NCBI GenBank assembly: GCA_030390025.1
Contig: CM059432.1
Location: 92,196,001-92,260,000 of the forward strand
Length of the DNA stretch: 64,000 bases
Direction of reading: 5' to 3'
DNA from: Squalus acanthias
Taxonomy: Eukaryota
Made by a program: the position numbers and the translations under genes. The notes beneath the pieces are model-generated. The model was not told the origin of the DNA. It ran no database searches and worked only from the letters and a program-made list of their open reading frames with translations. This document shows positions 1,661 to 28,241 of this stretch, piece by piece (positions within the stretch are counted from its first letter, which is position 1; each line of letters begins with the position of its first letter).

Positions 1661-1806
1661 ATTTGCTACTTGTATCCCAATAAATCCCATACCCCTATTG
1701 GCCCTATTCTCATTGACCTTTGCAGGGTTGTCTTCAACCAGAGCAATGAAATTAAATCCTCATCCTCATTTTTGAATCCCTCCCAGACCTTGATCCTCCC
1801 TACCTA

Positions 1807-4950: not shown

Positions 4951-6393
4951 CTGCTAGACACTACCGCCACGATCTCCTGCGCCCGCAGATCGTGACATCA
5001 GTCGAGCGTGCAACGCCCCGGACCGGAAATTGAGTCGCGCCCCCTGCCTTAGCGCCTGCCGTTAGGAACGACAGGCAGAGGGGAACGTTTTCATGTCGGG
5101 AAGGGGCTGGGGGCGCGCTATTTAAAGGCGGGCGCTTCCTGCTTTTTCTTGTCGGCAAAATCTTTGGTACACGCAGGTTGAGAGCGAGAGAGACGCCTGG
5201 AGAGATTTAACACTGTCCTAAGGAGTTTTGGTCCTCAGCACCACTTTTGAGGTTCCTAAGTGCCGAGCTCTTTCCCTGGGTCTATTCATTAGTGGTTCCA
5301 ACACAATTGCTTTAGAGGTCTCTCCAGGCTGAGATTCAAGGCTGCAATGAGCAGGGTGTGGCTGGCCAGCAAGATGGCCCCTCCCCTTTAAGAACTGGAC
5401 GGCGCCAGTCTGTCTGGCTTCCATGGTAATTGACATTGCCTGAGCTTCGGTAGCTTTCTGAGGTAACACCTCGCTCCCCGACGTTAGCGCCTTAAGAGAG
5501 GTGTGTAGCGCCTGATTTAGCGCTCAAATCACCTCCAGGGGCGATAGAGGCAAATTTTGCAGTCGGAGGCGATAATTAGCGCTGGGCACTAAACTTTGCG
5601 CCTGGCCGATATTAGCGCCCCAAAATGGGCGATACCCAATTTTCCCCCTTTATTGCTATAGGCCCAGAATTTACTCAAGGGCTTCGCTACACTCCTGCTG
5701 TAACTCTGACAGAAGGCCAACGGAACCCATCAGAGAAAGGCAGGAGTTCCCGGTTGGTCTTGTAAGGGGCAGAACCACTGTCCAACCCTTACAACACCAA
5801 TAACGCAATGGGGACAGAGTCGGGGCGGGGGGGAGATGAGGACTTCCGACATTGGGAGTTTCCACTTCCCTCGCTCAGAAGAACCAATATGCTGACAAAG
5901 ATGAGACATATCAGCCTCAGGTAGACACAAGTGAGAACCTCCAGTGCAGGGCACAGACCGAACCCCTGAAGATCATGTTGGACATTTAAAAAAAAAATTG
6001 GATTGTCCTCCTTGCACAGGGGCCGAGGGGGAGATGAAAGGGGTCTCAGGGTGGGGTCCTGTCTAACCACTGATAGCAGACAGTCGCTGGAGTTTTCAGC
6101 CGCACAGTGCAGCCTGGCACCTGAGGTGAGTCTGTAGTGATGTGGCTGCCCTCCAGATGAACTCACAAACTCCGGCAGGACCAGCACTGGAGGCCACCAG
6201 TGGGATTACAGCCTGCAAACGTTTGGAATCAAAAGGGTAGATTTGGTCTTTGTGCGATAGTGTAAAACGGGTGATAGCGAATCAGCAGTCCGATTTACAT
6301 CCCTCCCAATTTTTATTTTCATTAAAGTCAAAGGAAATAAAAATGGGGAGAAATGTAAAACAGGCTGCTGATTTACTATCACACATTTTACAT

Positions 6394-6725
6394 TGGCCCA
6401 GATATTCCGATCGCAGGCCTTCCGCGGGCGGAGGGCTGCGATCTGGAAAAATCTGCGCCCTTACCTGAGGGCTCCCGGGAGGCGCACAGTTCTGCTGCTG
6501 GGCCTCTCCAAACTGCTGGTGCGCAGGGCCCACGTATCCCAGAGGCGCAGGTAGTTCGCAGCGTCCCTGGGATCACGTAGGCCGTGGGGAGCCAATCAGA
6601 GAAGGGAATCTCCCTTCATACATTTGACAGGAAGACCTGTCAAATATATGAATGGAGATCACCCCCAAAACATAGTAAAACTTCAAATATTTTTTTTTTA
6701 AATCACATTTTTAAAATGACTTGAA
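6394..6725 (+). mobile_element. Truncated MITE, same family as 21473-22208
   Basis: Starts GGCCCAGATATTCCGATCG and is colinear with the left half of 21473-22208, including the internal hairpin. Confidence 0.65.
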
Positions 6726-6726
6726 A

Positions 6727-6891
6727 TCCCCTCCCCTCCCCCCTTTCCCTGCCTCTGCACCTGCTTAAAACCTGTTACATTTCTAATTTTTTCCAGTTCT
6801 GACGAAGGGTCACAGACCTGAAACGTTAACTCTGTTTCTCTCTCCATGAGTGCTGCCTGGCCTGCTGAGTGTTTCCTGCATTTTCTGTTGT
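6727..6891 (+). mobile_element. Penelope-like element terminal (pLTR) fragment
   Basis: Same sequence as the arms of 26681-26914 and 38269-38502. Carries a hammerhead motif. Confidence 0.7.
6795..6831 (+). ncRNA. Minimal type I hammerhead ribozyme motif
   Basis: AGTT-CTGACGA-A-GGGTC(ACA)GACCT-GAAA-CGTT-AACT: core boxes, stem II, stem I AGTT/AACT and a palindromic ACGT helix III. Confidence 0.6.
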
Positions 6892-9800
6892 TAATTCATT
6901 TATCCCTACTCTCTGTTTTCTGTCCGTTAACCAATCCTCTATCCATGCTAATATATTACCACCAACCCCATGAGTCCCTATTTTACATAGCAATCTTTTA
7001 TGTGGCACCTTATCAAATGACTTTTGAAAATCCAAATATACTACATCCACTATTTCCCCTTTATCTACCCTGTTAGTTACGTCCTCAAAAAAACTCTGAT
7101 AAATTTGTTAAACATGATTTCCCTTTCATAAAATCATGTTGACTCTGCCTAATCATATTATGATTTTCTTATTGCGCCGTTACCACTTCCTTAATAATGG
7201 ATTCCAGCATTTTTCCGACAACTGATGTCAGGCTAACTGGCCTGTAGTTTCCTGTTTTCTCTCTCCCTCCTGTCTTGAATAGCAGGGTTAAATTTGCTAC
7301 CTTCCAATCCGCTGGGGTCGTTCTAGAATCTAGGGAATTTTTGAAGATCACAACCAATGCATCCACTATTTCTGCAGCAACCTCTTTTAGGACCCTAGGA
7401 TGTAGGCCATCAGGTCCAGGGGATTTGTCGGCTTTTAGTTCCATTAGTTTCTCTAGTACTTTATCTCTACTGATATTAATTACTTTAAGTTCCTCACTCT
7501 TATTAGCCCCTTGGTTCCCCCTTATTTCTGGTATGCTTTTTGTGTCTTCTACTGTGAAGACAAATATAAAATATTTGTTTAAAGTCTCTGCCATTTCCTT
7601 ATTCCCCATTATAATTTCACCTGTGTCAGACTCTAAGAGACCAACGTTTACTTTTGGTACTCTCTTCCTTTTTACATACTTGTTGGAGCTCTTACAATCT
7701 GCTTTTATATTTCTTGCTAGTTTACTCTCATATTCTATTTTCTCCTTTTTAATCAATTTTTTGGTCATCCTTTGCTGGTTTCTAAAGCTCTCCCAATCCT
7801 ACTGTTCTTTGCAACATTATAATCCTCTTCTTTTAATCTAATACTATCCTTACCTTCTTTAGTTTGCCACGGATAGATCACTTTTCCCGTGGAGTTTTTA
7901 TTTGTCAAAGGAATGTATATTCGTTGAGAATTTTAGAATATTTCTTTAAGTGTTTGCTACTGCTTATCTACTGCTATATCTTTTAATCTAATTTCCCAAT
8001 CAACCTTAGCTAACTGACCCCTCATACCTATGTAATTGGCTTTATTTAAGTTTAAGACGCTCGTTTCCGACTGAAGTATTTCACTCTCAAACTCAACGTG
8101 AAATGTTATCATATTATGATCACTCTTCCCCAGGGGATCCCTTACTATAAGATTACTAATGAACCCTGTCTCATTATACAATACAAGATCTAAAATAGCC
8201 TGTTTCCTGGTTGGCTCCATGACGTATTGTTCTAGGAAATTGTCTCAAATGCATTCCATGAACTCGTCCTCCAGATTATATTTGCCAATTTGATTTGCCA
8301 GGTCTATATGTAGATTAAACTCCCCCCTGATTATTGTATTACCTTTGTTACAAGCTCCTGTTATTTGTTGATTAATATTCTGTCCAACAGTATAGCTACT
8401 GTTTGGGGCCTATAAACTACTCCCATCAGTGTTTCTGCCCCTTTTTATTTCTATCTCCACTCATACTGATTCTACTTCCTGATCTTCTGAGCCAAGATCC
8501 TTTCGCACTACTGTCCTTATGTCATCCTTTATTATCAAGGCTACCACCACCCCTCCTTTTCCATTCTGCCTGTCTTTTCTAAACATCAAGTACCCTGGAA
8601 TATTTAGCTCCCAACCTTGGTCACCTTGCAACCACATCTCTGTAATGGCTATTAGATCAAACGCATGTATCTATATTTGTGTCACTAATTCATCTATCTT
8701 GTTACGAATGCTTTGTGCATTTAGATAAAGAGCCTTTAATTTTAACTTTTTACCATTATTCCCTACTTTCACCTTATTCGCTGATGCACTTTTACCATTA
8801 AAATCTCTGTCCCTTCCTGTCACACTCTGCTTATCTTTACCCAAATCGCTATACTGCTCCATTGCTTTGACTTTTCTCTTTAGATTTCTAAATTTCCCCT
8901 CACCTGACCCCTCCCCCCCATTTTTAGTTTAAAGCCCTATCTACAGCCCTAGTTATTCAATATGCCAGGACACTTGGCCCAGCGGATGTGGAGATCGTTC
9001 CAATGGAACAGCTGCCCCTTTTTTTTTTATTTGTTTTTATGGGATGTGGGCGTCGCTGGCAAGGCCAGCATTTATTGCCCATCCCTAATCTTTCCCCAGT
9101 ACTGGTGCCAGTGCCCCATCAATCGAAACCCCTTCCTCCCACACCACTCTTTGAGCCACGCATTTAACTCTCTGATCTGTTTGTCCCTATGCCAATTTGC
9201 GCATGGCTCAGGTAACAATCCAGAGATTATTACCTTTGAGGTTCTGCTTTTTAATTTGGACCCTAACTACTCAAACTCTCTCAGCAGAACATCATTCCTA
9301 GTTCTACCTATGTCATTGGTTCCTATGTGGACCACGACAACTGGGTCCTCCTCCTCCCACTCCAAACTCTTCTCCACTCATGAGGAGATATCCTTAACCC
9401 TGGCAACACAGCCTCCGGAACTGCCGGTCGTGGCTGCAGAGAACAGTATCTATCCCCCTGACTATACTGTCCCCTACCACTACAACATTGTTTTTCACTC
9501 CCCCCCACTTGAATGGCCTCCTGCACCACATTGCTGTGGTCAGTTTGCTCATCCATCCTGCAGACTTTGCCCTCATCCACATAGGTAGCAGGAACCTCAT
9601 ACCTGTTGGATAAGGGCAAAGGCCGAGGCTCCTCCAGCACTGCACCTGGGATCCCCTTATCTGCCTGAGCTGCGGTCACACCCTCCTGTCCCTGACCACT
9701 AACCAGACCTGTACTACTACCTAACCTAAGGGATGTGACTGCCTCCTGGATCAAAGTGTCAAGATAACTCTTCCCCTCCCTGATTCCCCGCAATGTCTGC

Positions 9801-9960
9801 ACCTCGGACTCCAGCTCAACTCTGAGCTGAAGTTCCTCGAGATGCAGACACTTACTGCAGACATGGCTGCCAGGTATCCAGTGAGCTGAGGCATTGGGCA
9901 ATTAAGTTCCCACCTCCCGTTATGTCAGTTTTGTACCTTCTTCTATTTTTGAATAAATTA
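6892..9960 (-). mobile_element. CR1 LINE (ORF1 Zn-finger/SGNH esterase; ORF2 endonuclease to RT N-terminus), degenerate and 3'-truncated
   Basis: ORFs 9323..9901 (HVCSKC, coiled coil), 9394..9645 (VVGDS), 7957..8220 (LGKSDH), 7169..7768 (KSPGPDG, NYRPVSLTS) and 6826..7050 (YLDFQKSFDKV). Confidence 0.92.
9020..9089 (-). mobile_element. Short 3' tail of the second LINE family (or its SINE) inserted in CR1 ORF1
   Basis: Poly-T plus TATGGGATGTGGGCGTCGCTGGCAAGGCCAGCATTTATTGCCCATCCCTAAT matches the 3' end at 56638-56705. Confidence 0.7.
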
Positions 9961-10199
9961 TTAGATTCATTTGTTAAACCTTGTTTTTGGAGACATATTG
10001 GACTAGAAATCAGGTCGCGTATCGTCCGTTTATGTGGGCAGTAAGAACAGCCCCAGGCCCTGAAATGCCGATCTCCGACCTCCAAGTCCCTGGCCACCGA
10101 GGCCCTCGATCCCAACCCCAGGCCCGTGATCCCACCCTCGGCCCCTGATCATTTACCTGCGGGCTGCTGCGGCACTCGAGGGTACAACGCAAATTCGGA

Positions 10200-11092
10200 T
10201 GTTGGCTGGTATGAGGAAATATAAAAATGAAGAAAGATTTGAAAATTTGGTGCTTTTGTCGTTAAAACAATGCAAATTATGGGCGATATGATAGAAGTGT
10301 TTAAAATTAAGAAAGAATGAGTCAGGGTAGTTAGAAGCAGACTGCTTTCAGTAGTTGAGGGGTCTAGAACGAGAGGTCATAGATACAAGATTAAATTTAA
10401 GAGATTTAGAAAGAAAGAAAGACTTGCATATATATAGCGCCTTTCACGACCACCGGACGCTTTACAGCCAATGAAGTACTTTTTTTGAAGTAGAGTCACT
10501 GTTGTAATGTAGGAAACACGGCAGCCAATTTGCGCACAGCAAGCTCCCACAAACAGCAATGTGATAATGACCAGATAATCTGTTATTGTTATGTTGGTTA
10601 AGGGAGAAATATTGGCCAGGACACGGGGATAACTCCCCAGCTCTTCTTCAAAATAGTGCCATGGGATCTTTTACGTCCACCTGAGAGAGCAGACGGGGTC
10701 TCGGTTTAACGTCTCATCCAAAAGACAGCACCTCCAACAGTGCAGCACTCCCAGCCTAGCTTTATGTGCTCAAGTGCCTGGAGTGGGACTTGAACCCACA
10801 ACCTCTGACCCAGAGGCGAGTGTGCTACCCACTGAGCCACAGCTGACACTTTAGAACAGAAAACAAGAGAAACTGCTTTATGCAGAGTAGTGAGGCTGTG
10901 GAATTCACTTCTGGGTTACTGGTTGAGGCAGAAACTATGTCAATTTTCAAGATTAGATCAGATTAAATGGATTACGGAAAAGAGATAAAGCGATTATGGA
11001 ACAGGACAGGTAAATGTAATTAGGACTATTTGCCGACACGCACTGGTTGGGTTGAACGGCCTGTTTCTATGTTTTAACTTCTATGAATTTCT
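10200..11092 (+). mobile_element. Old CR1 3' end, interrupted by a SINE
   Basis: Degenerate RT C-terminal DNA and a CR1 3' UTR ending in …TTCTATG repeats. Confidence 0.65.
10412..10849 (-). mobile_element. Full-length tRNA-derived Deu-domain-type SINE (SacSINE1-like)
   Basis: A box TGGCTCAGTGGG and B box GGTTCAAGTCCC on the minus strand, (TTTC)n tail, and a 7-bp TSD TTTAGAA at 10405-10411 and 10850-10856. Confidence 0.85.
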
Positions 11093-12861
11093 ATATATGC
11101 AGTCTGCATAATTCTCTAATCTCCCTTCACCCTGGACTTTCTTACACTTAGGAAGACCTTCCATCTACTGCACTAAAATACACTAAGCGCCTGTGCAAAA
11201 TGTCCTGTGGTGAGTGAGACAACAGGGTAAATTTTCATCATTAACACTCTTGGAGCAGGCTTCCTCTGTGGAATCAGAAAATTACCCTATTGGGAAATTG
11301 GGCACAAGCTGAAGACAACGATTTACTCAGAGTCTTTCACAACAACTATTGAATCCATTTAAAATTAACATATTACAAAAGCAAAATACTGCGTCCCTGA
11401 GGGCAGAAAAACTCACCTCATACTCGGACTCTCAACAACTTACCTAAAAGGAAAGAAAGACTTGCATTTATATAGCGCCTTTCATGACCACCGGATGTCC
11501 CAAAGCGCTTTGCAGCCAATGAGTGTAGTCACTGTTGTAATGTAGGAAATGACCTGCAGTAATGTAGCGTTTTACACAGCACACATCTACTGACGGAACC
11601 TTTCATTGAACATTGAGAGAAGATACCTTGTGGTCACTATGTGTTAGCAATATCATAAATGTAGTGGGAAGATTTCCTATGTTTACTATTCCTCGCGTTT
11701 ACGATTTTGTTAGAATGAGTGATCAGTGTATATCTTCCCTTAATGTTTACACATAGCAACCAGAAGAAAACGTTCCTGTTGTTTTTTGTATCACAGTGGA
11801 TATAACTCAAATAAACAGAAGAAATATTGGAAATGTTCCCCATTTTGTGATCCATATGACAAAAGGAAATAAGTAATATGTTAACAGTTACAGTGACTAT
11901 CATACACTGTTGAGTACATTTTCTGTTATTGGTTTTGTAAGGCCTAGTAACCCTATTGCTTGGGGTAATTATCAGTGAAATATGTTCAAGTGTTATCCAT
12001 GAGGAAAAATAGTTCCCCTTTTGGAGGAAAAGTTCCTGCTGGAGGGTTGGCCAATCCCAACTGGTCTGTAATTACTCAATTTCACTTTTCTCACATTGCT
12101 TAATAGCCACTTAATTTGATACAGTAACACTAAAGTATATCAGGCCAGTTGCAGAGTGCAAGAAAAAAGTTAGTGCTATGACTGGCCGAAATAAACATAA
12201 AACTTAATGAATCGGCAGTTAGATGTCCAGAGGGACCCCATTATTTAAAAAAATCAGTTTAGCCTTGTGGGCGGGGGGTGGCTGAGCAAAATTCTCAGTG
12301 GTGGCTGATTGCAGAGGGATGGGGGATGTCACCACTGACATTAACCCCCTGTCAGCCAATGGCATTGCTGCCCTGTCAGTCATTATCATTAACCCAACAT
12401 CAGCTGTGGACAGACAGTCCCTCCAGTCAGTCAGCCATTGCAAAATGTTGAGAAGAGAGACAAATTTAGCCGATTGAATTGTAAGTTTCAATTGCTTACA
12501 TTTAAAACGAAAGCCCCGATGTTACCGTAGCCCGCCCGGAAACAGGGTGGGATCAGGTCGTGTGCTCATTTTACGCCCCATCTGATTTTACGTTCCATTG
12601 TCTTCAATAGAAGTTAAAATCGGGTGGGGTATAAAACGGGTGGACCACTCACAGCCGTCCTGTTCCTGCCAGATGGGTTTGTTTAAAATTGGGGCTCAAA
12701 TGGCCCTAACAAGATGAATGAATGATACAGCCACAAGTCAGGCATGAATTGAGCCACCTAGACCTCATGCTCTGGAATTATTTCACAAAATCCCACCGCC
12801 TCTCCACCTCCCTCTCCTCCTTAAAACCCAAGCTTTTGGCCAAGGCTCCTATTTGCTCCTG

Positions 12862-13072
12862 AAACAAAAGCAAAACTGCAGATGCTGGAAATCTGAAACA
12901 AAAACAGAAAATGCTGGAAACACTCAGCAGGTCAGGCAACATCTGTGGAGAGAGAAACAGTTAACATTTCAGGTTGTGACGGAAGATAATCGACCTGAAA
13001 TGTTAACGCTGTTTCTCTCTCCACAGATGCTCTCTGACCTGCTGATGTTTCCAGCATTTTCAGTTTTTGTTC
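12862..13072. mobile_element. Penelope-like inverted-repeat insertion, degenerate
   Basis: Two inverted arms related to 26681-26914, with TCCTGA on both flanks. Confidence 0.65.
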
Positions 13073-14211
13073 CTGATATCTCCTCTTTGGCTCAGTGTCA
13101 TTTTTCTACCTTCTGAGATGACAGGAGGATAGGAATATAGGAAGCTAGGAACTGGAGTAGGCCATTCAGCCCCTCGAGCCTCTTCCGACATTCAATGAGA
13201 TCATGGCTGATCTATATATGATATTCTCTAGTGAACACTTTAAAGCATTTTAGGATTAATTGTTTGATTTAGATTAACATTATGCTTCATAGAATAAAGA
13301 GGAAGCTTTCACTTCATAAGACATTCAACCTGATTATGAAACTGTAGTCCAGCTGTGAACACAATAAAGATGTTGGCAAAATTTCTGAATAGTAACATCC
13401 TTTCTGGAGGATTCTCTTCCGAAGCCAAAAATCAAACATAGCAGGAATAATGAAAAAATCGGAGTCTACATGCTGAGGGCTAACTTGGACAAACGGATGT
13501 TGCATTCAAACTAATTAATGTACAATGTTTGTAGTACTAAAGCTATTTGAGGTTATTAGGATAGTTTTCACAGATTTCAGCAGATGATTAGAACTGTTCC
13601 GAATTTAGATTTAAGTGATCATAGTTGTTATCTATACAGAAGAAACCTCACCAGTACCAGCACAGTTAGGCTGGAATCCATACCAAAGATAAAAGATAAA
13701 AGAACCAAAAGGCCAGTGATCTGCTATTATATTATCAACCTTTTATTGGTAGATCTATTAGCCGATTAAATATCGCACCCGTGGATTAATTTCCAGGCAC
13801 TACATTAGCTTTGGTAGCCTTGCTGTTAAACGTCTTGTTACACACCTTGACATTTAATTACCCTTTGCTGTCTTAAACTGTGGACTATTAAATATTGAAA
13901 CTGCATTTAACCCAGGACATTTCATTGCATGACAGATGCCAGCTTCATTTAAACAAAATTGCCCTCCATTTTGGCTTGCAAGATATCTCCCAAATTATTG
14001 GAATATGTACGAAAGCTTTTATTGGTTACATGAATTGAATTTCTTCAACTTTGATGGTGGAAACAATTAAAATAAATGGTGACCATAATCTAAAAGTGTA
14101 CTGTAACTGGTATTGTATCTACACAGTGTGGGAGTTAGTTCTGCAATACTTTATTTGATGTCCTTCAAGATATTTAATTATCCAGATACAAGCTAGATAA
14201 TGAAAACACTT

Positions 14212-14943
14212 CGGCAAGAAATTGGCCTCCTTTGCGCCTCCCATTATCGCCTCCGGGGGGCGATAATGGGGCGCTAACGACTTACCGACTGGGTGTGGCA
14301 AAAGAAACGACTCCGGTGAATATAATGGGGGGGTAGCGCCAGCGGTAAAACTTACCGCCTCAATCTCCTGCACCCTGGAGATCGTGACGCCCCGGATCCT
14401 AAGTTCGCTTCCGCCCCCTGCAGCTTCGCCGGGCAGCAGCAACTGCAGCTACAGGAGGCGTTGTGACCTCGGCCGGCCGCTTGGGGAGCGGTAATTAAAG
14501 GGATTGGTGGTCAGGTAGGCCAAAAATAAAATTTCCGCCCCTTTATGCTGGTTTTTTTTATTTTTCATTGCCGCGTTTGATCAGCCCTGCACTCTCTTAG
14601 AGTGCTTGGGGCTGCTCCTCGCGGATCGTGGGTGCCGTCACCAACCCATCCCCAACCTTACCTTTAACTACTGTGAGCATTGGCCCTTCCCTTTAAGGGA
14701 GGGAAGGAGCCTGCGATTCCGGCTGCGCTGCACGGAACATTGCTCCGCGCTCTGCTGATACCGCCCCTCTCACTCCCTTTAGCACTCTAAGGGGAGTGGT
14801 AGTGCTTGATTTAGCGCTCCACTTCCCTCTTGGAGCACTACAATTGAGTTACATGGGAGCCTCTCATCATTAGCGCCTGGCGATAATTTTTCCGCTTCCA
14901 AAGTTTTAGCGCCCCAAACGGGGCTATAATGAATTTCTCCCAC
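14212..14943. mobile_element. Non-autonomous Harbinger-type element, degenerate
   Basis: Both ends align to the subterminal regions of 16710-20965 and 4090-5648, with many TTAGCGCC-type motifs. Confidence 0.7.
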
Positions 14944-15646
14944 CAAGTCCTAATATCCTATGCAGCAAAAAGTCAAAAAATACATTTGTGCACAATAATG
15001 TTAGATAGCTGTTATAGTAATGAAATAATTAATATATTTAAATAGATTAATTTATTGATTTAATCAAGAATATAACTTTTGTGGCAAAAGGATTTTTTTT
15101 CTCTCTTTTCTCTCTAACCTTGGACAGTGGTTTAAACTAGGTGCAGGAAACTACAAAATACTGTATTAAATTTATAGCTTAACTAGTTAAACTAATTAAT
15201 ATAACTATAAATAATAATTGAATAAAGACTTTAACTAATTAAATAAATAAAATAAGGCTGGTCTAGGATTTGGCAGGGTAGGTTGCGTGTCTGGACTGCA
15301 GTTTGTGAACGGAGAGACTGTCCCGAGCAAACACGTCTGCAGGAGATGTCTCCATCTCGAATCTCTCCGGCTCAGTGTCATTGAGCTGGAGACACTCCGA
15401 CACATAAGGGAGGTGGGGGGAATTTCTGGGCAGTTTTATCCAGAATACAGTCACACCCCAGAGGAAAGCACAGGTTCAGGAATGGGAGGGTGTGACTGTT
15501 AGGGAGCCGGGTAGCAGGGATTCAGGAGAGGTTAGAAGGAGGTCACGCAGACACTGGTCCTGTCCAACAGGTACGATGCACTCACTACCTGTGAGAACAA
15601 GGAGAAAGACTGCAGGGAGGACAGCCATAATGCAGACCAAGGCACC

Positions 15647-16198
15647 GTGGCTCAGAAGGCTGTCCAAGGGGGGGAAGAGCAGAATAGAAATGTGGTAGTG
15701 ATCGGGGACTCTATAATTAGGGGGATAGATATTGTCCTCTGCAGCCAAGAACGAGAATCCCAAAGGGTGTGTTGCCTACCCGATGCCAGGGTAAGGGATA
15801 TCTCATGGCGGCTGGAGAGGAACTTGGAAAGGGAGGGGGTAAATCCAGTTGTCATGGTCCATGTTGGAAAAAACGACATAGGTAGGAACAGGGAGGAGGT
15901 CCTGCTGAAAGAGTATCAGGAGTTAGGATCTAAATTAAAAAGCAGGACCTCGAGGGTAATAATCTCTGGATTATTGCCCGAGTCACATGCAAATTGGCAT
16001 AGAAGCAGACAGATCAGGAGAATTAACATGTGGCTAAAGGGCTGGTGTGGGAAAGAGGGGTTCCTTTTCATGGGATACTGGCACCAGTTCTGGGACAGGA
16101 AGGAGCTGTACCGATGGGACGGGCTCCACCTGAACCGGGATGGCACCCGTGTCCTAGCGGAAAGGGTAAATAGGGAGGTGGCAAAGACTTTAAACTAG
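15647..16198 (+). pseudogene. CR1 ORF1 SGNH/GDSL esterase-like domain
   Basis: VIGDS, HVGKND and DGLHLN motifs. The upstream Zn-finger part is disrupted. Confidence 0.85.
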
Positions 16199-17067
16199 TA
16201 AGATGGGGGGGGGGGAGAGATCTACAAGAAAAGTAACCAGCCTAATTATAAACAAAACAGGAAAAGAGAGCATAGGAAAGAATAAACTAAGGGAGGAGAT
16301 TGATGGCAAAGGAATAAATAGAGTTATAGTACAGGAGTCTAAAAAGATGGTTAAACATAAAGTGAGAGGAAATCCTATTAAAAATAAATTAAACTGTCTG
16401 TACAGCAATGCGCACAGTGTCCGTAATAAAACAGAGGAGCTGGAGGCAATCATGCATTGCGAGGAACCAGACATAGTAGGGATTACTGAGACATGGCTAC
16501 AGAAAAATCAGGACTGGGAATTAAACATTGCAAGGTATAACATATTTAGAAAAGATAGAGAGGGAAAAAGGCGATGTGGAGTAGCTGTACTTATTAGGGA
16601 TAACATAATGGCAGTAGAAAAAAGTGATGCCACTATCAGCAAGACAAAAATAGAATCCATATGGATAGAGATAAAAGATAATAAAGGATCAATCACACTA
16701 ATAGATGTACGGGGTAGAAATTAGGTCGCGCCCCATTTGGGGCGCAAATATCGTCCGGACGCAAATATTAGCGCCTGGCGCTAATTATCGGCACTGACAG
16801 GAAACTTCACTTTTACCGCCCCGGGAGGTGAGTGGAGCGCTAAAGCAGGCGCGGCACACCTGTCTTAAGGCGCAAAGGCCAAGGAGTGAGGCGCTAACTC
16901 AGCGCACGAGCGCAGCGCAGCTGCTGCCAGTTAGCGAGGGAACACAGACACACTGGCGCCGGCCACTTCTTAAAGCGGGGGGGGCCACTTGCTCCCCAGC
17001 CACACCCTGCTCATTGCAGCCTTGAATCTCAGCCTGGAGAGACCTGTAATCCATTTTGCTGCCAAGC

Positions 17068-18998
17068 ATGGAGAGGGTGAGAGAACGCGCTCATCGCTTC
17101 ACCGAGCGGGCCTTGGATGCTCTGGTTGACGCAGTGGAGCGCAGACGATGCATGCTGTTCCCGGAGAGTGGCAGGAGGCCTTTGCCACGCGAGTTCAGAA
17201 GAGTGTGGAGGGAGGTGGCTCAGAGCGTCTCCTCCAGGAGCATGGTGCCCAGGACCCATGTTCAATGCCGCAAAAAGTTCAACGACCTCACTCGGGTCGT
17301 CAGGGTGAGTGGCTTTTTCTCAATACCTCTCCATCCCTCCATCTCAACCTCACTCTATGGCCAGAGGGTCTTAAAACCCCAATGCACAACACTCATCCAA
17401 CACCTATGGCCCTTTCATCAAACACACACACACATTCTACACTTTGCATACAGTAAGGGCTATTCACCTATGGGAGGCACATCAGGCAAGACCATGGCTG
17501 TATATTGTAAGGGCTAATCACCTATGGGAGGCACATCAGGCAAGACCATGGCTGTATATTGTAAGGGCTATTCACCTATGGGAGGCACATCAGGCAAGAC
17601 CATGGCTGTATATTGTAAGGGCTATTCACCTATGGGAGGCACATCAGGCAAGACCATGGCTGTATATTTACTCAGATGCTGTCCTTTTTCTTGCAGGCTA
17701 AGCTGGCTCATAATCGGAGACAGCAGCAACGGACGGGTGGAGGGCGGCTTCAGCTGCAACCCCTCAGCGATCTGGAGGAGCGCGTCCACAGGATTGTGGC
17801 AAGCCGGGTGATCGGTCCCGTCGCCACTGGAGACGCCGACCCCGTTGTGGACAGCAATGGTAAGGTCATCACCTTTTCGTCCTCTGTCCTTCCACTTGTC
17901 CCTCACAATACCAGCCATTGACACTTTCAATCCAACTTGCTAACTCGCTGCACTTATTCCTCCCTTACTGCCACCCTGTCCTCACGCTAAAGCCACTCTT
18001 GTACCTCCCTGCTTTCAGATGGTGATTCACCAGCTGAGGAGACGGGCCCTCAAGCTGCCACTGGGAGTGATGCTGCAGCCGAGGAGGAAGAGGAAGCCGG
18101 AGCATCAGTGCCACCCTCTCCCGAGGAAGCCCATGCCCACACTGGGAACACGCCTTCCCCGGAGGGGAGCAGGGGGGAAGGGGCTGATGATGGTGAAGCT
18201 CCAGGACCCAGCGGGCTGCAGCAACGCCATGGGGGGGGTAGGGAAGAACGGGGGCCTTCTCCCCAGAGGGAGAGTATGCCAGACACTCCTACTGCAATGG
18301 ACGCAGAGGAGGAGCGGCTGATTGCAGAAATGAACAGCCAGGCGGTGGGCATGCACACTGAGCTCATGGGTGCAGTGGGAAGGGTGCCCGAATGCATTGA
18401 GTCACTGGCAAGGAGTGTGGAGCACTTCGCTGTAGCACAGGCGGATGCCACACTAACGCTTAGTGCTGCAATTCAGTCACTGGCTGCCGTGATCCCACCT
18501 CTGACTGCTCTCATACAGACTCAGATGGAGGCCACGCGAGCACAGACTGCTGCCAACCTCGATGGTTCGTGCACATGTCCCCGGGGCTGTCACCGCGCCG
18601 CAGCAGGCCAGCAATCTGTTCTCCGGCAGATTGCTCCGGATGCTGAAGTGCTGCCCCGTGGGAGTGCCAGTGTGTCGGGCGAGCAGGGAGTTGCTGTCCT
18701 CTCTCACGATGACAGCATTCCTGCTGCCAACACTGTCACTTCTCCACTGCACTTGCCACCGCCTGTAGGACAGACTGCTGCCGCCCATGCAGAGTTGGTG
18801 CAGTCTGCAGCCGGGCCCTCCAGGCCCAGAAGTGGTCAAGGCCGTCCTTCAGGGGCATCTGCAGTGTCAGGGTCTGACGAGCAGCAGCCTTCCACCAGCC
18901 TTGCTGCAGCCACTGAGGTCCCATTACGGAGGAGCAGTAGGGTTGGAAGGGGGGAAGTGCGCAAGGGAAGGAGATCACCCTCGAAGGGCAAAAAGTAG
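17068..18998 (+). CDS. Harbinger Myb/SANT-like DNA-binding protein (NAIF1/MSANTD-like); exons 17068-17304, 17697-17859, 18019-18998; 459 aa
   Basis: Trihelix motif (RFTERALDALV…WREVAQSV…QCRKKFNDL) in exon 1 and AHNRR…RTGGG in exon 2. GT-AG introns in phase 0 and phase 1 join into a 1380-nt open frame with a basic C-terminus. Confidence 0.88.
17453..17668 (+). repeat. 54-bp minisatellite, 4 copies, in intron 1 of the Myb gene
   Basis: GTAAGGGCTATTCACCTATGGGAGGCACATCAGGCAAGACCATGGCTGTATATT repeated head to tail with one substitution. Confidence 0.95.
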
Positions 18999-19292
18999 GA
19001 GGTGTGCCAAAATGCTGGTCATTTTTTTATTAAAGGCCGAGGGTCGTGGTCCAACTTTTGTTTAGTGTTTTGGACATTATCTCCAGGTTGTGAGAACCAG
19101 TTATGTTATTGACTGTTTTTTTGTGTTTATTTCTATGAGTTTGTCATGAGGAATTGACACACACAGAGTTTGTAAAATAAATAAGTTTCTGTTTTCAAAA
19201 TATACATGGCTGGTGCTTGGAATTATTGGTGCCTTGGCCGGCTTAGGGGTTGCGTGCTGGGTTGATTAGTGTTTGTAGCAATGGCAGGGGCC

Positions 19293-20452
19293 CTAGAAGC
19301 GGCTTGCTATTAGTCGTTGACGGACGGCCCTTGCAGTTTGACCATTGTGGGCCGCCCTCCCGCCTTGGTGCTGCTGATGATCATCGTCCTCGTCCTCTTC
19401 CTCCTCTTCCTCCTCCTCCTCTGGTGGTGCTACAAGGCCTGGTGGCATTGGCTGGGTCCTGAGGATTGCCATGTTGTGCAACATGCAGCACACGACTACG
19501 AAGTTCGAAACTTGCTCAGGCGAGTACTGCAGGGCTCCTCCGGAATGGTCCAGACAGCGGAACCGTTGTTTCAGCACGCCGATTGTGCGCTCAATAATGT
19601 TCCTGGTTGCTTGATGGCTTTCATTGTACCGCAGCTCAGCAGGGGTGTTTGGCGTACGGAGCGGTGTCATCAGCCAGGTGCTCAATGCGTACCCCTTGTC
19701 CCCAGAAGCCAACCAACTGGCTGATGCGGTGCCTCGAAAACTTCTGCCACAGTAGTCTGGCGCAGGATGAAAGCATCGTGGCAGCTGCCCGGATAGTGGG
19801 CATTGACAGCGAGTATCACCTGTCTGTGGTCACAGACCAACTGCACATTCAAGGAATGGAACCCCTTCCTGTTCCTGAATTCCTCTGCATTCTCTCGCGG
19901 AGCACGCAAAGCCACATGCGTGCAGTCAATGGCGCCCTGCACCATGGGGAAGCCCGCTACCCTCGCAAAGCCCAGAGCACGGTCACGCTGCTTGTCTGGG
20001 GTCATAGGGAAAGAGATGAAGTCTCGTCTCCTTCTGAAGAGGGCATTGGTGACCTGACGGATGCAGCGATGCACCGCAAACTGGGAGATATTGGCGAGGT
20101 CCCCAGCAGCAGCTTGGAATGAGCCAGTGGCGTAGAAGTTCAAAGCCACTGTGACCTTCACTGCCACCGACAGAGACGTCCTGGACCTCAGCTGAGGCTG
20201 CAGATCTGGCTGCAGCAGGTGGCAGAGCTCAGTGACCACCTCCTTGCTGAATCGCAGCCTCCGCAAACACAGCTCCTCGGACATATGGATGTAGGAGAGC
20301 TGTTCACGATATACCCTGGGAGGGTAAGCTCTCCTGTACATGCGCCTGATGGCCCTCCTCCGTCTGGCCATCATTGCCACTCTCTGTCTGTGTCTCTGTA
20401 TCCTCCGATTCAGCTGGAGCAGGACGACGCCCCCAATCATTGCAGCCCCCAT
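19293..20452 (-). CDS. HARBI1-like DDE transposase (DDE_Tnp_4 type), ~386 aa with one 1-nt frameshift at 19700-19703
   Basis: ORFs 19682..20521 and 19293..19712 join at WLL|GDKGY. Catalytic motifs are GAIDCTH, GDKGY and RNIIERTIG. NRKGFHSLNVQ, PGSCHD and VCCMLHN are also present. Confidence 0.92.
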
Positions 20453-21472
20453 ATTCTCTTTGCCAGAAAAGTAATGAGGTACAGCAACTAAAGTAGTAAC
20501 AAAGTTAGGATGAATAGGCAAAACTACCTCACAGAGCGTTGAGTCAATGTAGAAGTCTCTCTCTCTCTCTCTCCGAATCTCTCTCTCTCTCTCAGAACGA
20601 GTGGTGCATAAATGTTGACCACAGAAAAAGACAGGAAGAGGCCCCCTTTAAATAGCGCCCCCCCCAGCCCCACACCGATTGATAACGTTCCAGTCTTCCG
20701 GTCGTTGGAAGCGCCAGGCGGTAAGGCAGGGGGCGCCACTCAATTTCCGCTACGGGGCGCCCCAAGGGCGTTGCACCATGGAATGACGTCACAATCTGCG
20801 CGCGCAGGTGGTCGCAGCGGTAAGTTTTAGCGCCGCCGCACAATCTCAAGTTAAGTTCTCGAGCGGCGCAAACAGCGCTGCGCCCGGGCGTTAGCAGGCT
20901 TAACGCCCCATTAGCGCCCTCTTAAGGCGCTAACGGGAGGCGCAACCAAGTGAATTTTTACCCCGTAGTCTATAGACCACCTAATAGTGGAAGGGAGGTG
21001 GAGGAAGAAATATGCAGACAAATTAGGGAAATGAGTAAAAAACATAGAATAATAATCATGGGGGATTTCAACTACCCCGATATTAATTGGACAGAAGAGG
21101 GAGGTAAAGGGGATAAGGGAATGGAGTTCCCACAATGTGTACAGGACTCCTTTCTAACCCAACATGTAAAAAGCCCAACAAGGGAGGATTCGCTATTCGA
21201 TCTAGTAATGGGGAATGAACCAGAGCAGAAAAGAGAAGTAAAAGTAGGGGAACATCTAGGCAATAGTGACCATAATATAATACACTTTAAAATGATAATT
21301 GCGAAGGACATAAGTATGACGAAAACCAGGGTAATAGATTGGAGAAAAGCTGATTTTGAGGGGCTGAGAATAGAACTTGGGAAAATAAAATGGGCAACAA
21401 TATTGGCAAACAATGATGTAGAACAGCAATGAGAAACATTTAAAACGGTGTTTAACAGAGTGCAGGAACAAT

Positions 21473-22208
21473 GACCCTGAATTTCCGATCGGAGGCTTCC
21501 TGCGTGCGGATGCCTCCGATCGGAAAAAATCTACGCAGTTACCTGTTGGCTCCGTAGGTCCCGAGACTTGCGATCCTGGGCCTCTGCTCTCTGAAATGTG
21601 CAGAGGCCCAGGTATCCCAGGGTCGCATGTGGTTCGCAAGTGCCCCTGGGATCACGTGGGCCATGGGGAACCAATCAAAGAAGGGAATCCCCCTTCACAC
21701 TTTTGACAGGTCTCTCCGCACAGAACTGTCAAAAGTATGAATGGGGATCACATTTAAAAACACAGTTAAACATTAAATACATTTTTATAAAAACATCACG
21801 TATTTAAAATTAGTTAAAATTACAATAAATTAAATATTTTAAACAAAAATTTAATTTTTTGAAAAAATAATTCAAGTTTTTTACGGGGCTAAAAATAACT
21901 TACCTTTTTTAAAAGTATTTTTTAATTATAAACTCTTATGCTGGTAAAAGTAGGCCTTGCGTCTGCTTTTACCAGGAGTAGGATTTTTAAAGGTTTTCAG
22001 CGGGCGGAAGTTGTGCAGAAAGTGCAACTCCCTGCCCGCGGAGGCCCTTCTCCCGGGCAGACGGATGATCTGTCAAGAGGATTCTTGACAGATCGCAAGT
22101 GCCGGGTTTTAGCGCATGCGCTTCACATGCCTGAAACCGGCACTTGCGAGGCCCCTACGGGTGCGTATACACCTCGTACGCACCCGTGGGGGTCGGAAAA
22201 TCCAGCCC
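21473..22208. mobile_element. MITE (Harbinger-type ends) inserted in CR1 ORF2
   Basis: Imperfect TIRs GACCCTGAATTTCCGA / TCGGAAAATCCAGCCC, AT on both flanks, an AT-rich centre, and CR1 sequence resuming on each side. Confidence 0.85.
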
Positions 22209-24194
22209 ATCATATTCCGCTAAAAGGAAAGAACAAACTAAACACTAATGAGACTCCATGGATGAATAAATCCATAAGGGAACAATTGAGGGTAAGGAAA
22301 GAGGCATACATTAAGTATATAGACAGAAGGGGAGTGCATGACAAGGGAGAATAGGAAGAGATTAGGAGAGAAGTCAAAAAAACAATTAGAAAGGCAAAGA
22401 GGAACTATGAAATTAAATTATCAAGGAACATAAAACAAAATAGTAAAATATTTTACAGGTACATCAATAATAAAAGGAAGGTTGGGATGGGAATAGGGCC
22501 ATTAAGGGATAGACAGGATAATGCCACAGGTAATGACAGAGAGATGGCAGAAATATTAAATAATTATTTTGCTTCAGTATTTGCCAGGGAGATAGAACAG
22601 GTGGACATGACATTGGATGATGAGATTAGTAATGAGATAAGTGCATTTAAAATAAAAAGAGGGGATATATTAAATAAACTAATCAAACTCAAGGAGGATA
22701 AAACCCCTGGTCCGGATGGATTGCATCCACGCATTTTAAAAGAATCTAGGGAAGAGATAGCAGAGGCATTACTACATATATTTAATAATTTGTTAGATAA
22801 AGGTGTAGTGCCAGAGGACTGGCAGATAGCTAATGTAATACTTATATTTAAGAAGGGGGATAGAACATGTCCAGGGAATTATAGACCAGTCAGCTTAACA
22901 TCAGTGGTAGGAAAAATAATGGAATCCCTACTAAAGGAGAAAATAGAAGAACATTTAGAGACCAAAAATATAATAATGAATAGTCAGCATGGATTCCAAA
23001 AGGGAAAGTCTTGCTTGACCAACCTAATTGAATTTTTTGCAGAGGTAATAGAGAGAGTAGACAATGGTAATGTAGTAGATGTAATTTATCTAGATTTTCA
23101 AAAGACCTTCGATAAGGTACCCCATAATAGACTGATGCACAAGGTCAGAGAATGTGGAGTCAGGGGACAAGGAGCAGAATGGATAGCTGGCTGGCTTCAA
23201 GACAGAAAGCAGAGAGTAGGGGTAAAAGGTGTAGTGCCAGAAGGTGGGTAGTGGTGTTCCACAATGATCAGTGCTGGGATCACTGCTGTTCACAATTTAT
23301 ATTAACGATTTAGACTTTGGAATCAAAAACACAATTTCTAAATTTGCAAATTGGGGGGGATAGTCAATACTGGAGGAGGACTGCAACAAATTATAGGAGG
23401 ACATTAATAAACTTGCAGAATGGGCATATAATTGGCAAATGAAGTTCAACACAGATAAAAGTGAGGTATTACATTTTGGTAGGAAGAATATAAAAAGGAT
23501 ATAGAGGCACTGGAGAGGGTGCAGAGAAGATTTACAAGGATGATACCAGAACTGCAAGGGTATACATATCAGGAAAGGATGACAGGCTGGGTCTCTTTTC
23601 TCTTGCAAAAAGAAGGCTGAGGGTGACCTAATAGAGGTCTTTAAAATTATGAAAGATTTTGATAGAGTGGATACAGAGAGAATGTTTCCACTTGTGGGGA
23701 AGAGCATAACTAGAGGCCATCAACATAAGATAGTCACCAAGACATCCAACAGGGAATTCAGAAGAAACTTCTTTACCCAAAGAGTGGTGAGAATGTGGAA
23801 CTCGCTACCACAGGGAGTAGTTGAGGCGAATAGTATAGATGCATTTAAGGGGAGGCTAGACAAGCATATGAGCGAGAAGGGAATAGAGGGTTATGCTGAT
23901 AGATTTAGATGAGGAAAGACGGGAGGACGCTCGTGTGGAGCATAAACGCCAGCATGGACTGGTTGGGCTGAATGGCCCGTTTCTGTGCCATATATCCTAT
24001 GTAATCCTATGTAAATATTATTCTTGAAAACCGAGCAAAGATCTCCTGTGGTAATGCTTTGACGATATTAAATAAACATTTTAAAGCTACATTGCCACAT
24101 AGCTTGACATTTAATGAGTCATAAATTCAATAAAACTCATAAGAATATTTAATCAGGAAAAAAATGAACATCTAACATCTACAAAAACTGATTC

Positions 24195-26455
24195 GTGGGG
24201 GGGTCCGATGGTGGTCGGGAGGGGTTCAATTGTGGTGGGGGGGTCCGATGGTGGTCGCAGGGGGTGGCTCCTGATCGTGGGGGGAGGGTCCTGATTGCGG
24301 GAGGGGCGATCTTGATCCCAATCGCGGAGGTTCCCAATTGCGTGCGGGGGGGAGGTTCCAAACACGGGGGATGGTTCCAATTGCACGGGGCTTGTCCAAT
24401 GGTGGTCGGGGGGAGCAGATGGTGGTTGAGGTGTCCTATGGTGGTGAGGGGGTCCTATGTTGGTCGGGGGGTGGATCAGATGGTCGGGGGGGTCTGATGG
24501 TGATCGGGGGAGCAGATGGTGGTTGTGGGGTTCGAGGGTGGGGTGGGTCCGATGGTGGTCGGGCGGCAATCGATGGCGGGGGGTGGTCCGATGGTGGTCG
24601 GGTAGGAATCGATGGCGGGGGGTGGTCCGATGCAGGTCAGAGGGATCCAATAGTGGTCGAGAGGTCCGATGATGATCGGGGGGGTCTGATGATGATGATC
24701 GGGGGGGGGGGGTCTGATGATGATCGGGGGGGGGTCTGATGATGATGATGATCGGGGGGGGGTCTGATGATGATGATCGGGGGGTCTGATGATGATGATC
24801 GGGGGGGTCTGATGATGATGATCGGGGGGGGGGTCTGATGATGATGATCGGGGGGGGTCTGATGATGATCGGGGGGGGGTCTGATGATGATGATCGGGGG
24901 GGTCTGATGATGATGATCGGGGGGGTCTGATGATGATCGGGGGGTCTGATGATGATCGGGGGGGGTCTGATGATGATGATCGGGGGGGGGTCTGATGATG
25001 ATGATCGGGGGGGTCTGATGATGATGATCGGGGGGGGGTCTGATGATGATGATGATCGGGGGGGGGTCTGATGATGATCGGGGGGGTCTGATGATGATCG
25101 GGGGGGGTCTGATGATGATGATCGGGGGGGTCTGATGATGATGATCGGGGGGGGGTCTGATGATGATGATCGGGGGGGGGTCTGATGATGATGATCGGGG
25201 GGGGGTCTGATGATGATGATCGGGGGGTCTGATGATGATGATCGGGGGGGGGTCTGATGATGATGATCGGGGGGGGTCTGATGATGATGATGATCGGGGG
25301 GGGTCTGATGATGATGATCGGGGGGTCTGATGATGATGATCGGGGGGGTCTGATGATGATGATCGGGGGGGGGTCTGATGATGATGATCGGGGGGGGTCT
25401 GATGATGATGATCGGGGGGGGTCTGATGATGATCGGGGGGTCTGATGATGATCGGGGGGGGTCTGATGATGATGATCGGGGGGGGGGTCTGATGATGATG
25501 ATCGGGGGGTCTGATGATGATCGGGGGGGGGTCTGATGATGATGATCGGGGGGGGGTCTGATGATGATGATCGGGGGGGGGTCTGATGATGATGATCGGG
25601 GGGGGGTCTGATGATGATGATCGGGGGGGGGTCTGATGATGATGATCGGGGGGGGTCTGATGATGATGATCGGGGGGGTCTGATGATGATGATCGGGGGG
25701 GGGTCTGATGATGATGATCGGGGGGGGGTCTGATGATGATGATCGGGGGGGGGTCTGATGATGATCGGGGGGGTCTGATGATGATGATCGGGGGGGTCTG
25801 ATGATGATGATCGGGGGGGGGTCTGATGATGATGATCGGGGGGGGGTCTGATGATGATGATCGGGGGGGTCTGATGATGATCGGGGGGGGGTCTGATGAT
25901 GATGATCGGGGGGGTCTGATGATGGTGATCGGGGGGGTCTGATGATGATGATCGGGGGGGTCTGATGATGATGATCGGGGGGGGGTCTGATGATGGTGAT
26001 CGGGGGGGTCTGATGATGGTGATCGGGGGGGTCTGATGATGATGATCGGGGGGGGGTCTGATGATGATGATCGGGGGGGGGTCTGATGATGGTGATCGGG
26101 GGGGTCTGATGATGGTGATCGGGGGGGTCTGATGATGATGATCGGGGGGGTCTGATGATGATGATCGGGGGGGTCTGATGATGATGATCGGGGGGAGTCT
26201 GATGATGATGATCGGGGGGGGGTCTGATGATGATGATCGGGGGGGGTCTGATGATGATGATCGGGGGGGGGTCTGATGATGATGATCGGGGGGGGTCTGA
26301 TGATGATGATCGGGGGGGGTCTAATGATGATGATCGGGGGGGTCTGATGATGATGATCGGGGGGGGTCTGATGATGATCGGGGGGGGGTCTGATGATGAT
26401 GATCGGGGGGGTCTGATGATGATGATCGGGGGGGGTCTGATGATGGTCGGGGAGT
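24195..26455. repeat. G-rich tandem array, unit about TCT(GAT)3-5C(G)6-11
   Basis: Directly visible. Degenerate units at 24195-24670 and homogeneous units at 24670-26455. Confidence 0.97.
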
Positions 26456-26680
26456 CCAGACTGTTGCCGCCCATGCCGAGGTGGTGCAGTCCGCAGCCTT
26501 GCCTTCTAAGCCCAGAGCGGCTCAAGATCATCCTGCAAGGCCATCTGAAGTCTGCCTCACGGAAAGTCAACAGCCTTCCACCAGCCATGCTGCAGCCACT
26601 GGGGTAGCACATCGTGGGGGAACTAGGACAGGTAAAGGCACACTGAAGACAGGCACTAAGGGAATATACAAGGGTGATTA

Positions 26681-26914
26681 TGATAGCAAAATACTGCGGA
26701 TGCTGGAAATCCAAAATAACAACAGAAAACGCTGGAAAAACTCAGCAGGCCAGGCAGCATCCGTGGAGAGAGAAACAGAGTTAACGTTTCAGGTCGAAGA
26801 CCTTTCGTCAGAACAGTCTGACGAAAGGTCTTCGACCTGAAACGTTAACTCTGTTTCTCTCTCCACGGATGCTGCCTGGCCTGCTGAGTTTTTCCAGCGT
26901 TTTCTGTTGTTATT
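26681..26914. mobile_element. Penelope-like inverted pLTR insertion: perfect 98-bp hairpin with hammerhead motifs
   Basis: Arms 26715-26812 and 26817-26914 are exact reverse complements with a 4-nt loop and a 34-nt tail. 13-bp TSD ACAAGGGTGATTA at 26668-26680 and 26915-26927. Confidence 0.85.
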
Positions 26915-27069
26915 ACAAGGGTGATTAGTTGACTTTGTTATGTAATATTGGATAGATTGATGTATAAAGTTGGATTGGAATGTTTGTTTTGTGGTGGCTT
27001 TTATTTCAACACTGTGGCCAAGAGGACACTGTGATGGTCAGTAACAGAGGGCAGGTAAGGTGCGGGACT

Positions 27070-28241
27070 ATTGTTGATTGGGGAATTGGGGTTGCGTTCA
27101 CTGGTACCGCAGTTGGATGAGTTGATCATGGACAGTCCAGACAGAAAGGGGCTGTCTGGGTTGCCTCCTCCCTTCTCTGCTTCCACTTCCTGCTCCTCAT
27201 CCTCTTCCTCCTCCTCAGCTGGTTGCCATATGTCTGGTGGTAAGGACTGTGCCCTCATGATGGCTCGGTTGTGGAGCATGCAGCAGACCACGATGAATCT
27301 TGAGACCTGTTCTGGTGAGTACTGCAGGACTCCTCCAGAGCAGTCCAGGCAGTGGAAGCATTGATTAAGGACGCCAATGGTCTGCTCTATCAGATTCCAT
27401 GTGGCAGCATGGTTCTCATTGTACGCATGCTGCCCACGTGTGGTTGGGTTGCGGAGCGGAGTCATGAGCCAGGTGGTTAGCGGATAGCCCTTGTCGTCCA
27501 GTAGCCACCCTCTGGTTTATCTTGGTGGCTCAAAGACTGAGGGAACAGCGGACAGGCGCAGAATAAAAGCATCATGACTGCTGCCAGGATACTGGGCATT
27601 CACCATCATGATATGCAGAGCATGGTCGCACACCAACTGCACATTCAATGAGTGGTAACCTTTGCGGTTGCGGTACATCTCAGCATTTAGATGCGACACC
27701 CGCAAAGCCATGTGCATGCAGTCGATGGCGCCCTGCACCATGGGGAAGCCCGCTATCATGGCAAAGCCACAAGCATGCTCCACCCACTTCTCTCTGCTCA
27801 GCGAGAAGACAATGAACTCCCATCTCCTGACATAAAGAGTATTTGTCACCTCTCTTACACAGCAGTGGATTGCAAACTGGGAGATGTTACAGATGTCGCC
27901 TGCTTCAGCCTGAAAGGATCCCGACGTGAGGAAATTCAGGGCCACAGTCACCTTCACAGCCACTGGCAGCACTGTCCTTGCCCTGGTGTGAGGCTGCAGG
28001 TCTGATTGCAAGAGGTGGCAGAGTTCTGTGAGCACCTCTTTCGTAAAGCTCAGATGCCTCGCACACTGCCCCTGGCTCAGGTTGAGGTAAGGGAATTGCT
28101 ATCAGAAGACCCTAGGGGTTAAGGCCTCCTGCTGAGAACCCTTCTCCCCTCCTCCTCCCTCTGCGAGCAGCTTGTCCTTTTCTCCTGTTCCATCTCCCTG
28201 TCATGCTGCAGGCCAAGGTGGATGACAACTAGAGCATCCAT
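27070..28241 (-). pseudogene. HARBI1-like transposase pseudogene
   Basis: ORFs 27517..28035 (GAIDCMH, NRKGYHSLNVQ, PGSSHD) and 27001..27465 ([15 protein letters not shown]) are separated by a stop. The N-terminus is disrupted. Confidence 0.9.

Follow-up and report, generated by a model that had tools for sequence, protein, structure and literature searches.

A full-length, probably inactivated copy of an abundant two-component Harbinger transposon within a LINE of Squalus acanthias

A 64,000-nucleotide (nt) stretch of Squalus acanthias DNA (GCA_030390025.1, contig CM059432.1, positions 92,196,001 to 92,260,000, forward strand), below called the window, contains a DNA transposon with borders at 16710/16711 and 20964/20965, each ambiguous by one base. 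The transposon is a complete member of an abundant Harbinger family (PHIS, Nuwa-like) and lies in the endonuclease gene of a long interspersed nuclear element (LINE); its transposase, we think it likely, was inactivated after insertion by a real one-base slippage deletion. An earlier, sequence-only reading of the window had described a two-component Harbinger, and that assignment is borne out by a DDE_Tnp_4-type transposase, a Myb/SANT gene and terminal inverted repeats. The same reading had proposed a single recent mutation in an otherwise pristine copy of an active family; this is not supported, given that both private and subfamily differences are present. The copy is probably well preserved and dead, an ordinary decaying member of a large shark Harbinger family.

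The lesion itself is clear in the assembly. The transposase profile, PF13359, is split over two frames at the run of four C at 19700–19703, with profile positions 1 to 73 in one frame and 82 to 158 in the other, both above the cut-off. Thus, the G said to be missing at the second catalytic Asp (G4 for G5) is indeed missing. The three catalytic motifs, also claimed earlier, can be found across both frames as D176, D252 (at the break) and E288, but the product as written stops after 256 aa, short of the second D and the E. If an X is placed at the break, the protein keeps 71 of the 72 columns that 80% or more of 43 long homologs conserve, the single miss being the break. An active autonomous element has both of its open reading frames (ORFs) intact; in the window sequence, one carries this frameshift. 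A search by sequence for a related solved structure found none, with one match at E=0.37.

The family to which this copy belongs is very abundant, full-length, dispersed and multi-copy. In two DNA runs of the organism (X1 and X2), 31,603 and 48,197 contigs match the element, and in each bin within the element, including those of both genes, the summed depth, which is not a copy number, is about 0.16 to 1.4 million. The form with the fifth G exists among them and reads L-G-D: one C more follows 19699 in 203,436 of 279,770 depth in X1 (73%, 18 contigs), in 15,795 of 124,330 in X2 (13%, 5 contigs), and in all of the depth (70.9 of 70.9) in X17, which we guess to be an RNA run. Copies with G5 had been expected in the family, and G5 is the majority form in two of these three runs; since contigs lose rare variants, they do not show whether the G4 at this locus is real. 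Contig joints in X1 also reveal internally deleted members, 17772–18973 (skipping 1200 bp) and 16844–20626 (skipping 3781 bp), which are non-autonomous derivatives.

The low share in X2, together with the 27% of X1 depth that does not show the extra C, might suggest that the G4 is real but inherited, several copies of a defective sublineage having been copied in trans with it. However, an indel would be missed in short contigs ending inside the run, and in diverged subfamilies the extra base has another position; the loose ends behind 19703 represent related subfamilies that are in frame, with L-G-D and a CTC leucine codon. The remainder need not be G4, and both effects would lower the X2 share, although this is not certain. 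We give an inherited deletion only a slight chance. A programmed frameshift, by which the G4 form would yield full-length transposase, carries almost no weight with us. The two frames do overlap at the break, but the in-frame majority in the family contigs largely refutes this idea, and the database homologs run continuously through the motif, L-G-D-K being the commonest form (15 of 43). By column count, D-D-E is kept in 16 of the 43.

The stretch was found in 20 of the 21 runs listed, in 17 of them with at least half of the sampled words, and these come from 13 studies and 8 organism labels. The share of words was 0.50 to 0.51 in small runs of organism A and 0.46 to 0.66 under the seven other labels, or about 98% identity if the differences are evenly spread. 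A run of 9 million letters under label B had a word share of 0.52, which suggests that the family is high-copy there too. The simplest reading, to be taken as a lead, is an expansion older than the split of related species. No RNA run is on record among the listed runs holding the stretch. X17 covers introns, ends and LINE flanks, one of its contigs continues past exon 1 into intron 1, and the 15 joints listed for it, out of 108, include no splice joint; in X21, a raw RNA run from organism E of which 12% was read, no read aligned, and this is no test of expression.

How far has this copy drifted from its family? The comparison covers 40 of 171 differences between the window and the family contigs, 35 of them in the element. 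The window letter departs from the majority in both DNA runs at 20 of these 35 sites and from more than 95% of the depth in both at 8. At 19193, 20391 and 20497, the window's letter keeps a depth of no more than 364, and these letters are private or nearly so. Among the eight near-fixed differences listed, two are CpG losses, one at 20391 (R21 to H in the transposase) and one at 18838 in the Myb gene. In addition, position 20896, in the 3′ subterminal region and outside any homopolymer, holds an additional base that is missing from 87 to 99% of the family depth. The claim that the lost G is the only lesion thus stands for the reading frames but not for the element, which has at least eight near-fixed substitutions and this extra base relative to its family. 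With an indel-to-substitution ratio from general background, 0.2 to 0.5% or more substitution would bring, roughly, one indel in 4.25 kb; because a single indel matches this expected drift, the G4 is likelier real than an assembly error. We dropped the distance to X17 (24 of 1483 bases, 1.6%, five records of depth above 50) as a distance to consensus, since two of its letters are rare in X1 and X2. Abundant CpG had been taken as a sign of a young copy, and this we find weak: observed/expected CpG is 0.58 in the element versus 0.42 to 0.45 elsewhere in the window, yet values of 0.61 to 0.89 are reached in 4 of the 32 2-kb bins, all four lying wholly outside the element, so CpG content says little about youth and gives no date.

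All told, we would expect the G4 to prove a real deletion, private to this copy. An assembly error in the homopolymer, leaving a copy with two intact frames and the potential for autonomy, seems to us unlikely. In its favor, the lesion sits in a G run, G5 is the family majority in X1 and X17, and about 2.5 kb of coding sequence has no other frame lesion and unchanged conserved residues. Yet 25 of the 26 runs of at least four identical bases in the coding regions are in frame, including the longer G8 and two G6, which argues against an assembly prone to homopolymer errors, and the private substitutions and the extra base outside a homopolymer lead one to expect about one real indel in any case.

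Several points weigh against a real deletion in a decaying copy. The G4 is known from the assembly letters alone; contigs drop rare variants, and the lesion lies in a homopolymer, where long-read errors usually occur. The transposase retains all of its conserved columns but the one at the break, the Myb gene has an open frame, and the copy is thus young relative to the relics nearby (58% identity or less). The five near-fixed sites beyond the three private ones keep 1,800 to 21,600 depth in X2 and could mark a small, younger subfamily, not private decay; moreover, only 40 of the 171 differences entered the count. The spread over other organism labels could reflect samples containing host DNA. 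Finally, the private changes give an age of millions of generations only roughly: substitution of 0.19 to 0.47% corresponds to 2.7 to 6.7 million generations if one borrows the epaulette-shark rate of 7e-10 per bp per generation (PMC10587355), which is that of a different shark, and ignores CpG hypermutability. That the family is still mobile in sharks, with copies in which both genes are intact (perhaps the window copy itself, if the G4 is an error), we consider possible but doubtful.

The second gene, Myb/SANT, is in better condition. Its three exons are joined by GT-AG introns of 392 and 159 bp into a predicted spliced product of 459 aa without internal stops, as had been claimed; the frame, the PF13873 match and the collinearity of homologs agree on this. 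Because 20 donor/acceptor combinations preserve the frame, openness alone leaves the junctions unfixed; they are fixed by homologs that are collinear across them. Junction 1 is without a gap in 55 of the 67 homolog alignments spanning it, and P0124 (Pristiophorus japonicus) aligns to residues 5–456, at 37%, with both junctions gap-free. The search for full-length Myb homologs depended on the method, a word-based search giving 1 match and an exhaustive one 74. Two other P. japonicus proteins, P0122 and P0123, have three and two tandem Harbinger-type Myb domains, respectively, and possibly represent a domesticated or wrongly joined multi-Myb gene. The Myb/SANT and transposase genes are convergent and have a common 294-bp 3′ region (18999–19292) with polyadenylation-like hexamers at 19029 and 19176 on the forward strand and at 19026 and 19126 on the reverse strand. 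A TATA-like ATTTAAA lies upstream of the predicted transposase leader intron.

Both terminal inverted repeats had been noted before, and the 12-bp ends confirm them. They follow GGGGTA(G/A)AAATT, begin with a purine and pair at 11 of 12 positions. The two exact matches to the end motif in the window are the two element ends, among 24 matches at up to two mismatches; a degenerate form of the motif had no match in metagenome contigs and none in viral contigs, and so gave no more flanks from which to read the duplication. An outer C/G pair beyond the 12-bp repeats makes the first base of the terminal repeat ambiguous.

A profile search places the element inside a LINE endonuclease domain, with PF03372 to its left, PF14529 to its right and an esterase-type ORF1 upstream. 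To the right, the LINE includes a 298-aa ORF (22355–23251) that we take, from its motifs, to be reverse-transcriptase-like. When the 4258-bp insert is skipped, the LINE frame is open across the insertion site, with a stop at aa 325. Empty forms of the LINE in X1, X2 and X17 connect 16706 to 20965, three letters being compatible with either side, and give a net insertion of 4258 bp. This insert can be read in two ways: as a 4254-bp element with a duplicated GTA and an additional C, or as a 4256-bp element that begins with C, with a duplicated TA and a 13-bp terminal repeat. The flanks, ATAGAT and GTCTAT, form a 5/6 palindrome around GTA; this and the match to the Harbinger3_DR target discussed below favor the 3-bp duplication, GTA, as the likely one, although this is the reading of one site, and one site cannot set a rule for the family. 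We considered the empty-site joints as an insertion polymorphism and rejected this, the X17 depth of 108 against 170 to 350 in the LINE flanks pointing to other LINE copies.

The octamer GGCGCWAA occurs 22 times in the window versus 1.81 expected, and 9 of the 22 are in the two ends of the element. Among the remaining 13, 11 fall in three related ends or relics (4090–5648, 14231–14913 and 36550). We infer that it is the binding site of the element's Myb protein. By analogy with Harbinger3_DR and Ping/Pong (PMC2836001, PMC9179366 and PMC9392472), we imagine that the Myb protein would bind the element ends, probably at these clusters, bring the transposase into the nucleus and position it there; the DDE transposase would then excise the element and insert it into a palindromic target of about 15 bp, duplicating the central 3 bp. 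The window copy, without a transposase of its own, would depend on one supplied by another copy. Given that both of its ends are present, it may be mobilizable in trans, and it could still supply Myb protein.

The nearest database relatives are shark and ray predictions, "putative nuclease HARBI1" and Myb-like proteins (P0001, P0002 and P0124; Pristiophorus japonicus), which are at most 69% identical and are annotated as genes without transposon context. Shark or ray names are on 110 of the 120 transposase matches listed, the best of them 69% identical. A quick tree of 43 matches of at least 340 aa plus the query, a sample biased by the query, puts the transposase in a clade with 35 shark/ray proteins (Shimodaira-Hasegawa-like approximate likelihood ratio test [SH-aLRT], 99). 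These relationships make a cartilaginous-fish host likely, and nothing among the proteins of this sample points to a recent import. The name HARBI1 raises the idea of a domesticated host gene pair like HARBI1/NAIF1, which we regard as next to impossible: the label on the homologs is an automatic one, HARBI1, NAIF1 and MSANTD are single-copy genes without terminal repeats, and the transposon structure found here (terminal repeats, a target duplication, insertion into a LINE and very high copy depth) refutes it.

Among described groups, the element agrees with two-ORF PHIS Harbingers in its DDE_Tnp_4-type transposase, its Myb/SANT ORF (PF13873 and PF13837), its purine-start repeats and its multiple copies. 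Target duplications are TWA in PIF/Harbinger sensu stricto, CWG in NuwaI and C|TNA|G in NuwaII (PMC4482050). The site here has GTA or TA, so, with neither TWA nor CWG at one site, we file the element in neither PIF/Harbinger sensu stricto nor NuwaI; a related end in the window (36479–36486) does have CTG. The terminal repeat fits that of NuwaI (GGG start, 12 to 61 bp) if the outer C lies outside it, and the label "Nuwa-like" is based on the GGG ends and target flanks. The element also has in common with NuwaI and NuwaII its two ORFs (DDE and Myb/SANT), an animal host and its terminal repeat, 12 bp here and starting GGG, and NuwaI averages about 4.5 kb versus 4.25 kb here; the Nuwa groups differ in their duplications, neither CWG nor C|TNA|G being present at this site, and their host lists name no cartilaginous fish (PMC4482050).

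Two other vertebrate systems are also similar. Harbinger3_DR, a reconstructed zebrafish element (Sinzelle et al. 2008, as cited in PMC3016246, PMC2836001 and PMC9392472), likewise pairs a transposase with a Myb-like protein and has short terminal repeats. The shark site agrees with its 15-bp target, AAACAC-CWG-GTCTTT, at 8 of 12 outer bases (chance 0.003 to 0.01; PMC3016246), whereas the core is CWG there and GTA (or TA) here. Harbinger3_DR is reconstructed and the shark element is a natural genomic copy, and we liken the two by description, not by sequence. Harbinger-Snek (PMC8437027) is, like the shark family, a two-gene Harbinger of vertebrates that has expanded massively and has derivatives with a single gene or no coding sequence. 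It has 269 intact copies in Laticauda colubrina, RNA reads across both genes in L. laticaudata and an origin by horizontal transfer; in contrast, the shark transposase falls within a shark/ray-only clade, and no intact copy was seen. Thus, a natural vertebrate Harbinger system, for which the window copy had been put forward as a candidate, would not be the first, intact sea-krait copies having been published (PMC8437027).

As for sharks, papers on whale shark and grey reef shark list Harbingers in their repeat tables (PMC8455134 and PMC12498223), and a fish survey reports no Harbinger in elephant shark and calls for study of other cartilaginous fish (PMC9179366). We found no description of this family or of an active shark Harbinger in the literature, a search that did not extend to Repbase or Dfam, where a catalogued entry may exist.

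Table 1. Coordinates of the Harbinger copy, its two genes and the LINE around it (window positions)
Feature	Position	Strand	Basis or remark
Left part of host LINE: ORF1 (esterase type) and beginning of ORF2 endonuclease	15536-16709	+	PF13472, PF03372
Left copy of target duplication, GTA	16707-16709	+	Likely 3-bp; alternative TA at 16708-16709
One C directly outside left repeat	16710	+	Either an extra base or position 1 of the repeat
Left terminal inverted repeat, GGGGTAGAAATT	16711-16722	+	Inverted-end search of window
Left subterminal cluster, 5 GGCGCWAA	16741-16897	+	Predicted Myb-protein binding sites
Myb/SANT exon 1, ATG at 17068, 79 aa, Myb/SANT-like domain	17068-17304	+	PF13873 E=1.3e-9, PF13837 E=1e-6
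Minisatellite in Myb intron 1, 4 x 54 bp	17453-17668	+	Tandem Repeats Finder (TRF), 98% matches
Myb/SANT exon 2	17697-17859	+	GT-AG, in frame
Myb/SANT exon 3, ends at TAG	18019-18998	+	In frame; homolog alignment
DDE transposase, 386 aa if in frame, D176/D252/E288	20452 to 19293	-	PF13359, both halves
G4 run, coding CTG GGG ACA, break at codons 251-252	19700-19703	-	Family contigs: one more C
Predicted GT-AG intron (70 nt) in the 5′ leader of the transposase, 6 nt ahead of the ATG	20458-20527	-	Sequence motif
Right subterminal cluster, 4 GGCGCWAA	20827-20933	+	Predicted Myb-protein binding sites
Right terminal inverted repeat, GGGGTAAAAATT	20953-20964	-	Inverted-end search of window
Right copy of target duplication, GTA	20965-20967	+	Likely 3-bp
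Host LINE, right part: rest of endonuclease and broken reverse-transcriptase region	20965-23251	+	PF14529

The window holds other Harbinger remains. On the reverse strand are a derivative of about 1.56 kb (4090–5648), with no transposase match, ends 75 to 84% like those of the element and six GGCGCWAA, and a relative of about 0.73 kb (roughly 14212–14945) that resembles a miniature inverted-repeat transposable element (MITE), with decayed ends, a left flank AAAACAC and four GGCGCWAA; the ends of both relics are too decayed to decide a duplication rule. A second, broken Harbinger of the same arrangement lies at 26457–28182, its transposase 58 to 67% identical and interrupted by stops. The end of its Myb exon 3 (26457–26675) adjoins a 23-bp satellite (24668–26445, about 75 copies, strong G skew) directly upstream, which may have grown inside this second element. 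At 36479–36560, a Harbinger-like end follows AAAACAC-CTG, and 36479–36486 shows AAACAC-CTG, the exact left half of the Harbinger3_DR target; no partner of this end was found. Two older, fragmented transposase relics (39 to 56% identity) are on the forward strand at 43696–44311 and 52144–54032. Also on the forward strand, a 558-aa open stretch (41693–43369) is presumably a LINE reverse transcriptase, judging by its motifs; many other pieces of LINEs are scattered through the window. A 28-bp tandem array (63458–63997; 19 copies, 95% alike) reaches the window end.

This single copy, a broken one in a large repeat family, matters little; the family may matter more. In the literature found, shark Harbingers are repeat-table entries only (PMC12498223 and PMC8455134), and the reconstructed Harbinger3_DR is the only vertebrate Harbinger cited there as shown to jump. 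Slow mutation in sharks means that "near-intact" does not equal "recent" there, and it also keeps copies near the functional sequence, so that both proteins would be easy to recover and to assay for transposition by ordinary means. An intact copy of the family may therefore be worth finding. If the family is mobile, it would provide a two-component Harbinger of vertebrates that is natural rather than reconstructed, with a palindromic target of about 15 bp and a core, GTA, other than CWG. Such a system could be used for site-selective insertion and for testing how the Myb protein and the transposase share the choice of target.

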